Shown: piece by piece, positions 7,657-34,467 of the stretch | Layout of the letters: each line of letters begins with the position of its first letter | How positions within the stretch are numbered: position 1 is the first letter of the stretch | From: a virus | Lineage: Duplodnaviria; Heunggongvirae; Uroviricota; Caudoviricetes | Reading direction: 5' to 3' (one strand) | Length of the DNA stretch: 39,664 nt | IMG/VR virus record: IMGVR_UViG_2563366953_000005 | Coordinates: 1-39,664 of that record | The notes under the pieces: model-generated | What the model was told of the DNA's origin: nothing | The model's input: only the letters and a program-made list of their open reading frames with translations | Databases searched by the model: none | Position numbers and translations under genes: made by a program

Positions 7657-7671
7657 TTACCTTTCAGGTAA
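7657..7671. promoter_or_regulatory. Operator-like palindrome TTACCTTTCAGGTAA
   Basis: Perfect TTACC-N5-GGTAA inverted repeat, identical to the copy at 24275-24289 and matching the family of sites in the immunity region. Confidence 0.45.
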
Positions 7672-7708
7672 TTCTCAAAACATGCTGGATAGCAAACAAA
7701 TTATTTGC

Positions 7709-7728
7709 TACTGTATATTTATACAGTT
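7709..7728. promoter_or_regulatory. LexA (SOS) box
   Basis: TACTGTATATTTATACAGTT matches the E. coli LexA consensus TACTGTATATATATACAGTA at 18 of 20 positions (CTGT-N8-ACAG core intact); lies 20 bp upstream of the ATG at 7748. Confidence 0.65.
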
Positions 7729-7747
7729 TTTGCATGGAGAAGATAAG

Positions 7748-8005
7748 ATGCAGCAGTATCACTATCCACTAGAAGACGGATTTACCGAAAGGATTCACAC
7801 GCCGGGAGGCGTCAGATCACTGGTGGAGGGATCGCACTTGATGAAATTACTCCGGGATCTCGATAAGGATGGATTTAATGTCGATGGCCCACTTGCCGAA
7901 CTGACTGCACTGATTAACTACGTCACCAGCTCACAGATGTCTATGCAGGATCTGCAAACACATCTCGACTATTGTGCCGAACAATTACGAAAACAAATCC
8001 GGTAA
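7748..8005 (+). CDS. Small SOS-box-associated protein of unknown function (candidate antirepressor/induction factor)
   Basis: 85 aa from ATG 7748 with SD ggag at 7736-7739; plus-strand gene embedded in the minus-strand late operon between the internal-virion-protein genes and the tailspike gene; LexA box immediately upstream. The 107-aa version in the ORF track would start inside the LexA box and is less likely. Confidence 0.55.
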   Translation: MQQYHYPLEDGFTERIHTPGGVRSLVEGSHLMKLLRDLDKDGFNVDGPLAELTALINYVTSSQMSMQDLQTHLDYCAEQLRKQIR

Positions 8006-8012
8006 ATTTAAG

Positions 8013-8041
8013 GGCCGCGAAAGCGGCCTGTGACATGTCAC
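8013..8041. repeat. GNRA-loop hairpin (ggccgc-gaaa-gcggcc) fused to palindrome GTGACATGTCAC (copy 1 of 3)
   Basis: Perfect 6-bp stem with GAAA loop at 8013-8028, directly followed by the 12-bp perfect palindrome at 8030-8041; located 3' of the 7748-8005 gene. Confidence 0.45.
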
Positions 8042-8198
8042 ACTCAAGCTATGACAAACCTATGTACCCTGCTCCACCAGATAATATCAAAACAACTGCT
8101 ACAGCAAATTCACCGTCTTCAATGATACATTTACGATTCATAACGCCAAGGGCAACAAGCACAAATACAACAAGAATAAAAGCAATCATTTCTCATCC

Positions 8199-33343: not shown

Positions 33344-33363
33344 CAGAGGGTTGTGGCTGGATA

Positions 33364-33594
33364 TCATGAGTAGAAGAAGTATGCCAGTTCTGCTTTTGAG
33401 CGCAGCCATTGTCTTGTTTTACAGGCTTTAAAAAGCCCATTCATCAATACTTTACCTGGCATTTTGCGCTTACCTGTTAAGTGAGTCTGGATATAGTGAC
33501 TCGTCGTTCCGGCTTCCTGTGCGAAGGCTTCACGCTCATCCGGAGTAAGTGCAAGCCAGTGCTTTTTGAAATCGAAATGTCCGTTATCGCTCAT
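33364..33594 (-). CDS. Cro-like HTH regulator
   Basis: 76 aa; HTH-like segment LTPDEREAFAQEAGTTSHYIQ; divergently transcribed from the repressor-like gene across the operator cluster. Confidence 0.55.
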   Translation of the reverse strand: MSDNGHFDFKKHWLALTPDEREAFAQEAGTTSHYIQTHLTGKRKMPGKVLMNGLFKACKTRQWLRSKAELAYFFYS

Positions 33595-33630
33595 AGCTAT
33601 TGCCTGATATTTATTTCAGATAATAAATAT

Positions 33631-33693
33631 TCACCCATAAGGTAACAAAAATCAAGGATAGTTACCTGTGGGGTGCATTTACCTGTTGGGTAA
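33631..33693. promoter_or_regulatory. Immunity-region operator cluster (three TTACC-N5-GGTAA-type sites)
   Basis: TCACCCATAAGGTAA (33631-33645, 1 mismatch), TTACCTGTGGGGTGC (33662-33676, 2 mismatches), TTACCTGTTGGGTAA (33679-33693, perfect), between divergent Cro-like and repressor-like genes. Confidence 0.55.
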
Positions 33694-33748
33694 TATTGCT
33701 TTAAATTGAATCATCTACTGATTCATATATGAGGCGATTTTCCAGAAA

Positions 33749-34333
33749 ATGAAAAGTATCCAGGACGTCCGCAGGCAAAATCTCAACGACTTGATCGACC
33801 GTGAATTCAATGGTGTTCAGACGCGGATGGCAGAAAAACTTGGAACTCAGGCAAATCTGGTAAACCGCTGGGCTCTTGGCAAGAAGGTTATCGGCGACCA
33901 GGTTGCGCGAAAAATTGAAGCTGCCGCCAATAAACCCCGTAACTGGCTTGATATCGATCGCTCGCTTTCTCAGGAAGGTTTTCAGCCTGTCGGCCCAAGC
34001 GACATTGGTCAGCTGGCGGCTCACAACCTGGAACGCTGGATGAGCGAAAGCCGCGACCTTTCAACGCAGGGAAAACTTCACCGCGCATCCGGCGTCGCCC
34101 AGGTGACAATCAGTCGCCTGTTAAACAATGAGGTCAGCGTTTCCATTTCCACCCTGGAGAATGTTGCATCCGCATTCGGGCGTCACGGATATGAACTACT
34201 GATTCACCCGCACGACCCTGCGACTATCAACTATGACCGCTCACGCTACGCATTGTTACCCGAAACCGAGAAAGCAAAGATCGAAAGTTACATTGAATTT
34301 GTCATCAACCAGAACGAAAAAAGCAAACAATAA
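33749..34333 (+). CDS. Prophage repressor-like protein with two HTH-like regions and no recognisable S24 peptidase domain
   Basis: 194 aa; N-terminal HTH (TRMAEKLGTQANLVNRWALGKKVIGDQVARKIE) and a second HTH-like segment (LHRASGVAQVTISRLLNNE); no Ala-Gly/GDSM/Lys signature of LexA-type autocleavage; position equivalent to cI. Confidence 0.55.
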   Translation: MKSIQDVRRQNLNDLIDREFNGVQTRMAEKLGTQANLVNRWALGKKVIGDQVARKIEAAANKPRNWLDIDRSLSQEGFQPVGPSDIGQLAAHNLERWMSESRDLSTQGKLHRASGVAQVTISRLLNNEVSVSISTLENVASAFGRHGYELLIHPHDPATINYDRSRYALLPETEKAKIESYIEFVINQNEKSKQ

Positions 34334-34390
34334 AACTATATTTTTCAGTAAGTAAGCCGCCTCATGGCGGCTTTTTTATTGCCAGATAGA

Positions 34391-34467
34391 TTACCTTACG
34401 GGTAATTTTTTTAACTCATATCTATTGACACCAAACCAAATAAGCATAATTATTACCTCAACGGTAA
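34391..34467 (+). promoter_or_regulatory. PL-like promoter with two operators
   Basis: TTACCTTACGGGTAA (34391-34405), TTGACA (34425-34430), TTACCTCAACGGTAA (34453-34467) overlapping the -10/+1 region; drives the rightward recombination operon. Confidence 0.5.

Follow-up and report, generated by a model that had tools for sequence, protein, structure and literature searches.

The window analysed here is a 39,664-nucleotide stretch of DNA (IMG/VR record IMGVR_UViG_2563366953_000005, Caudoviricetes), and it is an integrated phiV10-like Uetakevirus prophage, the uetakeviruses being epsilon15-like temperate podophages. Between positions 31000 and 35000 it is 97.6 to 97.8% identical to the Escherichia phages phiV10 and vB_EcoP_PAS61, and the gene order of the whole window is that of phiV10 in reversed orientation. 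We noted that the palindrome TTACC-N5-GGTAA recurs at 13 sites in this prophage. Comparison of the sequence with its relatives indicates that these palindromes are very probably the operators of the prophage repressor, Rep. Rep is encoded beside a divergent gene for a Cro-like helix-turn-helix (HTH) protein, and an antirepressor gene lies elsewhere in the window:

33749-34333, plus strand: Rep, prophage repressor of 194 amino acids, with an N-terminal HTH and a C-terminal part for dimerisation or tetramerisation and Ant binding.
33364-33594, minus strand: Cro-like HTH protein of 76 amino acids, matching phrog_35 ("transcriptional repressor", E 5.6e-13).
7748-8005, plus strand: Ant antirepressor of 85 amino acids, 88% identical to SPC32H Ant (phrog_450/1760).
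7711-7726, plus strand: LexA box CTGTATATTTATACAG, just upstream of ant and conserved in 8 of 8 genomes.

Exact copies of TTACC-N5-GGTAA number eight in the window (starting at 7657, 24275, 27420, 31287, 31349, 33679, 34391 and 34453), against 0.01 expected, and none of 100 shuffled sequences reached eight. When one mismatch was allowed, 12 copies were found against 0.84 expected and a shuffle maximum of 3, the additional copies starting at 27402, 33294, 33631 and 3169. The two-mismatch class is at background, with 23 members in the window compared with 17 to 25 in lambda, Sf6 and P22, and such matches were rejected as sites for this reason. The sole exception is the two-mismatch copy at 33662, which is credible because exact copies hold the same position in epsilon15, SPC32H and the Klebsiella relative Kp711. 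The arms carry about 2 bits of information per position and the five central positions 0.2 to 0.5 bits. All 13 sites are non-coding after correction of three gene starts, in a window of which about 7.2% is non-coding DNA; they are spread over eight regions, all intergenic, and all are perfect or near-perfect palindromes. The sites are real and are under selection.

Three of the operators wrongly appear to be coding because the mechanically called starts of three open reading frames, 7682-8005 (ant), 26806-27480 (terS) and 3134-5152 (acyltransferase), were placed too far upstream. The corrected starts are as follows:

7748: true start of ant, downstream of the LexA box.
27399, minus strand: true ATG of terS (ATGCCTGCTGAACC), kept in all relatives.
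3218 or 3224: likeliest start of the acyltransferase gene (MEMLKYRADIDGLR).

A first-pass annotation of this DNA, made from the letters alone, had listed about 12 copies of the palindrome. All of its coordinates hold: the 15-mers at 7657 and 24275 are indeed identical, the copy at 33662 does exist with two mismatches, and the only omission is the one-mismatch site at 3169-3183. Its statement that most copies share the extended form ATTACC-N5-GGTAAT agrees with our count, the extension being present on 16 of 26 arms, and the enrichment that it anticipated over shuffled sequence is borne out by the figures above. It had also reasoned that a similar frequency in unrelated enterobacterial phages would undermine the idea. 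Exact copies number 0, 0 and 1 in lambda, Sf6 and P22, respectively, compared with 8 to 11 in each of eight complete Uetakevirus genomes.

Orthologous classes of site were found in phiV10, epsilon15, ZX5, Tyrion, SPC32H, a Klebsiella phage and an Enterobacter phage, whose Rep proteins are 42 to 99% identical to that of the window. Four more divergent loci from E. coli and Serratia (Reps 54 to 64% identical, with variant recognition helices) have the same motif, with pairs at the two promoters described below as PL and MID. An unbiased listing of all 5-Nx-5 palindromes in these four loci ranked TTACC with a 5-bp spacer first in each. In the epsilon15 record (AY150271.2), seven features are annotated "protein_bind, repressor, lysogeny," and their sequences are the TTACC-N5-GGTAA motif. 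Six of the seven have an orthologue in the window, at five locations (terS, gp3, tailspike, the PL pair and the distal MID site); the third site of the epsilon15 PL region (32479) has no counterpart here. The feature is therefore already known, as sites annotated as repressor binding in epsilon15, and the novelty implied by the first-pass annotation does not stand. A motif scan of epsilon15 also finds the three sites of OR, a second one at terS, the proximal one at MID and that of the lysis/conversion region, none of which its record lists; the phiV10 record has no annotated operators. A full-text literature search for the palindrome as a text string and for operators of Uetakevirus or epsilon15 returned nothing relevant, the original epsilon15 and SPC32H papers lying outside its coverage.

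The IMG/VR database contains about 300 contigs with a relative of the window Rep, and the best 80 of these, with Rep 99 to 100% identical, were used for a population comparison. Prophage copies of the PL region were compared by alignment, because insertions and deletions upset fixed offsets. Across 52 to 63 intergenic haplotypes of the PL and MID regions, the variable columns were 3 of 40 in the arms and 16 of 20 in the spacers, with 62 of 210 in other non-coding DNA. In the OR region, variation was seen in 5 of 15 spacer columns and in 0 of 30 arm columns; 78 of 78 copies share the degenerate GGTGC arm of OR2, whose spacer has six variants. Fixed arms around free spacers point to two half-sites read by a dimeric HTH protein, and a hairpin or a promoter would not yield such a pattern.

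The 5-bp operator spacers are also the most variable of the intergenic columns (0.8, versus 0.3 in neighbouring unconstrained DNA), with up to six or more variants per site (loci L011 to L090). Such hypervariability could reflect relaxed constraint or, alternatively, diversifying selection on operator affinity.

Analysis of the amino acid sequence of Rep revealed a match to SPC32H Rep (PDB 5D50, chain 5D50_A; E 3.5e-42) over residues 1 to 190. The protein is 99.5% identical to the ZX5 repressor and 43% identical to both epsilon15 gp38 and SPC32H Rep. Its N-terminal helix, ANLVNRW..G.K.IG..AR.IE, is invariant among Reps that are just 42 to 78% identical, which fits a half-site common to the whole family. 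A Pfam scan of Rep returned HTH families only, with no Peptidase_S24 domain (the domain of LexA-like autocleavage). When the ZX5 repressor was overexpressed, no free phage remained and the mRNA of holin and endolysin fell by more than 99.9% (PMC9782041); operators were left unmapped in that study. SPC32H Rep is described, in a later paper that cites the original work, as a tetramer on palindromic DNA in which each DNA-binding pair comes from different dimers and which Ant strips off the DNA (PMC9638917). A further paper places the pairs of DNA-binding domains about 100 Å apart and remarks that the structural mechanism of repression "has not been extensively characterized" (PMC9986798). Ant is far better conserved than its target, the window proteins being 88% (Ant) and 43% (Rep) identical to their SPC32H counterparts.

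Of the eight regions that hold operators, two share a composite architecture. The PL module sits downstream of rep, and the MID module lies between the P-like replication gene and the DUF1064 gene:

34354-34373: rep terminator, directly before the distal PL operator.
34391-34405: distal PL operator, exact; orthologue of the annotated epsilon15 site 32616-32632.
34425-34453, plus strand: PL-like promoter, with TTGACA (34425-34430), 17 bp and AATTAT (34448-34453); 10 of 12 matches.
34453-34467: proximal PL operator, exact; begins on the final -10 base and spans the start-site region; orthologue of the annotated epsilon15 site 32554-32570.
31396-31376, minus strand: MID terminator, just upstream of the distal MID operator.
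31349-31363: distal MID operator, exact; orthologue of the annotated epsilon15 site 35906-35922.
31329-31324, minus strand: MID -35, TTGATC, between the two MID operators.
31306-31301, minus strand: MID -10, TTTAAT, fused to the operator at 31287; the promoter reads CTATTGAT-17-TTTAAT.
31287-31301: proximal MID operator, exact; its right arm and spacer hold the Shine-Dalgarno sequence of the DUF1064 gene (ATG at 31283).

The orthologous intergenic regions of seven or eight genomes were aligned in the direction of transcription. This revealed a common order of elements: a GC-rich terminator, about 10 bp, the distal operator, about 19 bp, CTATTGAC/T (the -35), 17 bp, the -10, the proximal operator, the Shine-Dalgarno sequence and the ATG. 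The final base or bases of the -10 are the opening base or bases of the proximal operator. The -35 of PL is invariant in 52 haplotypes and is kept in seven genomes. The distance between operator centres is 62 bp in all genomes but one, in which it is 63 bp, and there are 20 instances of the 62-bp spacing in 12 genomes or loci. In both modules the operators flank their promoter, and 62 bp corresponds to 5.9 helical turns, so that the two operators lie on the same face of the DNA. This arrangement raises the possibility, to which we would give somewhat less than an even chance, that a single Rep tetramer holds both sides of the promoter as a clamp through its two partner operators.

The remaining operators lie in the OR region between cro and rep, after the cro terminator, and at the tRNA, acyltransferase, terS and tailspike/ant regions:

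33679-33693: OR1-like operator, exact; the OR site closest to rep.
33662-33676: OR2-like operator, degenerate TTACC-N5-GGTGC with two mismatches; 17 bp from OR1.
33631-33645: OR3-like operator, a conserved TCACC variant; 31 bp from OR2; fills the PR spacer.
33655-33650 and about 33632-33626, minus strand: -35 (TTGATT) and -10, respectively, of PR, which drives cro.
33342-33323, minus strand: cro terminator.
33294-33308: post-cro operator, with one mismatch (GTACC arm), directly after the cro terminator.
24253-24258 and 24276-24281, plus strand: promoter-like site directed at tRNA-Arg, TTGACA, 17 bp and TACCTT.
24275-24289: tRNA-promoter operator, exact, covering the -10; orthologue of the annotated epsilon15 site 2931-2947.
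24612-24688: tRNA-Arg(UCU), downstream of the promoter-like site at 24253.
3160-3165 and 3184-3189: acyltransferase promoter-like site, TTATCA, 18 bp and TGaTATGAT.
3169-3183: acyltransferase operator, TTACC-N5-GGTGA (TTACCTTAGTGGTGA), in the promoter spacer.
27471-27454, minus strand: pre-terS terminator, with the operator at 27420 directly downstream.
27420-27434: distal terS operator, exact; 18 bp from the site at 27402; orthologue of the annotated epsilon15 site 12-27.
27402-27416: proximal terS operator, with one mismatch, 2 nucleotides upstream of the terS ATG (27399, minus strand).
7657-7671: tailspike/ant operator, exact, between the tailspike gene (minus strand) and the LexA-box/ant gene (plus strand); orthologue of the annotated epsilon15 site 19895-19911.

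Five of the 13 sites overlap promoter elements directly, and a further four, namely, OR1, OR2 and the distal operators of PL and MID, are their partners. The -35-to-operator distance at the 24275 site is identical in eight genomes, in five of which a tRNA gene lies downstream. At 3169, the variant GGTGA arm supplies the TG of the extended -10; the O-antigen acyltransferase gene and the lysis cassette diverge from one another here, and orthologues of this site occur in six genomes, mostly sharing the variant arm TCACC/GGTGA. The one-mismatch site at 33294 has the same GTACC arm in phiV10, ZX5 and Tyrion and a different mismatch in the Klebsiella relative. The operator at 7657 lies upstream of the late-type promoter of the tailspike gene. 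The imperfect arms keep their positions across genera: OR2 has GGTGC, the site behind the cro terminator has GTACC, and TCACC is found both in the spacer of PR and at the promoter of the conversion gene. This suggests that selection maintains a gradation of operator strengths.

These placements agree in large part with the first-pass annotation. It had identified 33749-34333 and 33364-33594 as the repressor-like and Cro-like genes, and these are indeed a homologue of SPC32H Rep and a Cro-like HTH protein; it had also put three sites between the divergent cro and rep genes and two on either side of the PL-like promoter, where we find them. The assignment of a site to a tRNA promoter is reasonable given the constant geometry noted above, and the site described as lying upstream of an SOS-box gene is the operator at 7657, which adjoins the LexA box and ant. 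The two sites attributed to the terS start are indeed at terS; they stand just upstream of the true ATG and not inside the gene. Its central proposal, one immunity regulator with operators at many promoters beyond OL and OR, is supported by the placement of the sites at promoters, their conservation through the genus, the restriction of selection to the arms and the epsilon15 annotation.

We propose the following mechanism. A Rep tetramer with two HTH pairs would engage one palindrome with each pair, the half-sites TTACC and GGTAA being centred 10 bp, or one helical turn, apart. In the lysogen, Rep would occupy all 13 sites, and each transcription unit would be shut individually by one and the same protein. 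RNA polymerase would be excluded from the PL, MID, PR, tRNA-Arg and acyltransferase promoters, because there the operator covers the -10/+1 region or fills the spacer between -35 and -10. At PL and MID, where the second operator lies 62 bp away and beyond the -35, one tetramer or two cooperating tetramers might clamp the whole promoter. The post-terminator, promoterless sites at 33294 and 27402/27420, together with that at 7657, could serve as back-up roadblocks or as anchoring partners, which is a guess. Upon SOS induction, the ant promoter would be freed from LexA, Ant, which in SPC32H binds the C-terminal domain of Rep, would strip Rep from its operators, and all units would open together.

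A more elaborate, two-part extension of this mechanism can be envisaged, although we regard it as doubtful. In its first part, the terminator-operator-promoter-operator unit would be a dedicated promoter clamp that has been copied to the early and middle units, and a single Rep tetramer could grip both sides of the promoter and wrap it. In its second part, there would be one genus-wide immunity specificity: the sampled prophages of Escherichia, Salmonella, Klebsiella, Enterobacter and Serratia, with Reps 42 to 100% identical, all have one half-site in common, and the spacers could tune affinity or define immunity subtypes. The literature that we found states neither a dedicated clamp nor a genus-wide specificity, the original epsilon15 and SPC32H papers being outside its coverage.

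Several points weigh against Rep as the sole and sufficient reader of these sites. We infer from sequence that it is Rep rather than the Cro-like protein that reads them, and the clamp and roadblock roles have the same basis; the Cro-like protein may share some or all of the sites with Rep. No relative with a different operator was found among the best 80 IMG/VR loci or in a large protein search. That search yielded Reps with the helix variants PNLINRW, PNLVSRW and ANLISRW plus a 5-amino-acid insertion, and their loci keep TTACC-N5-GGTAA at the same places. No sigma-70 promoter that overlaps the sites at 7657 and 33294 was found by eye or by promoter scan, and the same two approaches gave no convincing sigma-70 terS promoter between the terminator and the ATG, where the sites at 27402 and 27420 lie. 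A repressor of lytic genes alone would not be expected to have an operator within the O-antigen acyltransferase promoter, since lysogens should express their conversion genes, and this site fits poorly with a picture in which only lytic genes are controlled. Finally, 62 bp (a contour of about 211 Å) is short for a loop closed by DNA-binding pairs about 100 Å apart, so that strong bending of the DNA would be needed. A conserved T-tract beside the distal operators hints at such bending.

The chief competitor for the sites is the Cro-like protein. It belongs to an HTH repressor family (phrog_35), and its HTH segment, FAxEAGTTSHYIQTHL, is nearly invariant in nine relatives and as conserved as the DNA-binding domain of Rep, which would imply an invariant DNA target for it too. 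Three of the sites lie between cro and rep, and a gradation of affinities for two competing proteins would fit the conservation, at set positions, of the weak variants TCACC, GTACC and GGTGC. If the Cro-like protein were the sole binder, the dispersed sites would serve to turn down early and middle transcription in lytic growth. We consider this improbable. The epsilon15 record credits the sites to the repressor, and it is SPC32H Rep that is reported to bind palindromic DNA (PMC9638917). Moreover, a 76-amino-acid protein gives no obvious reason for the 62-bp pairs, whereas a tetramer with two DNA-binding pairs does, and closing the late, lysis and terS entry points in the lytic phase would be counterproductive. 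That both proteins use at least some of the sites, as lambda Cro shares the CI operators, is compatible with Rep as the principal reader and is distinctly more likely, if still below even odds. A different reader altogether, such as a late activator (candidate gene 27521-27874, phrog_536), a host protein such as IHF, the terminase (with the palindromes as pac) or a restriction-modification enzyme, is highly unlikely. Two sites abut terS, which is a frequent location of pac, three are 30 to 40 bp upstream of late-type promoters, and the prophage does encode further regulators of the PerC, AlpA and phrog_536 kinds. However, the presence of the motif in OR and its overlap with the -10/+1 region at PL are the geometry of repression and not of activation, and late-type promoters are marked by a separate conserved palindrome, CCATATRTGGTT, which is a better candidate for an activator site. 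The motif is unlike the IHF consensus. Besides, the epsilon15 record lists IHF sites separately.

Two further explanations dispense with a dedicated binding protein. The palindrome could be a mere passenger of a duplicated promoter cassette of terminator, -35 and -10, as might be suspected from the extra sequence (ATCTATTGAC/T) and geometry that the PL and MID cassettes share and from the overlap of the proximal operators with the -10, which adds the constraint of promoter function. Yet arms have also been kept at sites that lie outside any -10 or -35, namely, those at 7657 and 33294, the two at terS and the distal operators, the flanks of the different site classes are unrelated, and the contrast between arm and spacer columns within the sites is the signature of dimer half-sites; we find this explanation very hard to credit. 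The palindromes could instead act as nucleic acid hairpins, that is, as terminators, RNase III or other processing sites, or cruciforms. Every site can form a stem of 5 to 7 bp, and the epsilon15 record has RNase III sites near some of the palindromes. The stems are weak, however (-1.1 to -5.8 kcal/mol), and without a T-tract, and the arms are invariant in sequence, without compensatory pair changes; on these energies and this lack of compensation, the hairpin and terminator reading was rejected. Genuine terminators adjoin the sites as separate GC-rich hairpins, and several sites lie upstream of the predicted transcription start, leaving the hairpin explanation with next to no probability.

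Besides the annotated epsilon15 sites, a close relative of the system is the SPC32H Rep/Ant switch (PDB 5D50 and 5D4Z), with which the window shares a Rep homologous over its full length, a closely similar Ant behind a LexA box and the same motif at the same places; the genome-wide operator map and the 62-bp pairs come from the present analysis. Likenesses to lambda CI include divergent rep and cro genes with three operators between them, operators that overlap PR and PL, and an oligomerising repressor with cooperative binding to multiple sites. Unlike lambda, which has three adjacent operators of about 17 bp at both PL and PR, the window has two at PL that are 62 bp apart and flank the promoter; rep is co-directional with PL; and operators also occur at middle, late, tRNA and conversion-gene positions. 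Further, lambdoid repressors have a C-terminal S24 self-cleavage domain and are induced through RecA, whereas the window Rep is without an S24 domain, and its homologue SPC32H Rep is reported to be inactivated by Ant. Because of the absence of this domain and the differing PL architecture, the system is not lambdoid, and the lambdoid arrangement supposed in the first-pass annotation was not upheld.

That annotation had also likened the sites to P1 C1 operators and to mycobacteriophage stoperators. P1 C1 recognises asymmetric 17-bp operators as a monomer; these are dispersed at separate promoters, and induction can proceed through an antirepressor. The likeness is functional, in that one immunity repressor serves many scattered operators and is countered by an antirepressor; the present sites, in contrast, are palindromes with a 5-bp spacer, and Rep is the homologue of a tetrameric protein with two HTH pairs and matches no non-HTH Pfam family. 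The stoperators of L5 gp71 are asymmetric 13-bp sites that act in an orientation-dependent manner within transcription units. The window resembles L5 in having many sites outside the immunity region, and a roadblock is conceivable at 33294 and 27402/27420, which lie in transcribed leaders after terminators; the sites here differ in being symmetric and all intergenic, with five overlapping promoter elements. The analogy is thus apt as regards dispersal and fails as regards the sites themselves, and because P1 C1 operators and stoperators are asymmetric, the system is neither of the two. In the Streptomyces phage phiC31, the c repressor binds 17-bp palindromes (conserved inverted repeats [CIRs]) at many intergenic positions, often near early promoters or terminators. 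We regard these CIRs as the closest functional analogue, with unrelated protein family, host phylum and motif, and we know of no 62-bp promoter-flanking pairs in phiC31.

A second conserved element, CA(T/A)AT(A/G)TGGTT, occurs 30 to 40 bp downstream of an operator before the lysis cassette, the tailspike gene and gp3/portal. At these three places it is followed, 5 bp on, by GGTAAT or a -10-like TATGAT or TAATAG, with no usable -35. The element also occurs in the spacer of the MID promoter and after the cro terminator. Its copies in the window are as follows:

3126-3139: AACCATATATGGTT, a perfect palindrome.
7617-7627, minus strand.
24223-24233, minus strand.
31307-31314, minus strand.
33276-33286, minus strand.

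The element is present at the same places in relatives and is absent from lambda, P22 and Sf6; in the epsilon15 record, the region of the copy upstream of the lysis genes is labelled an RNase III site. The element appears to be where an activator of late or middle genes acts, with the phrog_536 gene at 27521-27874 as a candidate. A second palindrome, CCATATATGG, is distinct from TTACC-N5-GGTAA.

A conserved one-mismatch sequence, TTACC-N5-GGTAT, lies about 45 bp upstream of int in every relative (at 26870 in L001, 26882 in L002, 8026 in L003, 28568 in L004, 26960 in L005, 12620 in L006 and 19769 in L007), and its equivalent in the prophage studied here would fall just past the right end of the window. 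It is nested in a longer inverted repeat, GACGGTAT...ATACCGTC, where the epsilon15 record annotates integrase-binding and RNase III sites, and it may serve Rep at the int promoter or be another element altogether.

An iteron-like array was noted at 32562-32701, within the DnaT-like gene (32183-32998, minus strand). Its units are a 12-bp repeat (2.4 copies), the 24-bp repeat ATCCCGTTTTTGGGATCATTCAAC (2.6 copies at 100% identity) and an 18-bp repeat (3.1 copies), and the small inverted repeat CCCGTTTTnGGG is present in every unit. By analogy with lambda O, this is probably a replication origin inside the initiator gene.

The window itself is an integrated prophage cut at gene boundaries. Positions 1 to 1149 are host chromosome with the yfgH lipoprotein gene and yfgI (DUF5384), a segment found in 5,422 of 5,426 complete E. 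coli genomes at about 97% identity. The attachment (att) core reported for phage ZX5, ATTGAGTGGGAATGATT, is located at 1150-1166. The right end of the window is the integrase gene; the int-proximal junction beside guaA falls beyond it, and guaA adjoins int in loci L093 and L094. The host DNA at 1-1149, the att core at 1150 and int at the window end together place the prophage at the guaA/yfgH locus.

Relative to the epsilon15 annotation, what is added here is incremental: the 13-site map of a phiV10-type prophage, the conserved 62-bp pairs, the pattern of selection that fixes the arms and leaves the spacers hypervariable, and the invariance of the half-site across the family. The result is a full and testable operator map for a very common type of Escherichia prophage. 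With the 62-bp operator pairs, the unusual "trans" tetramer proposed for SPC32H Rep gains a concrete piece of DNA on which it could act. The map would explain how a small podovirus without lambda-like N/Q antitermination keeps every one of its units silent by means of a single protein, and also how all of these units are released simultaneously through a LexA-controlled antirepressor.

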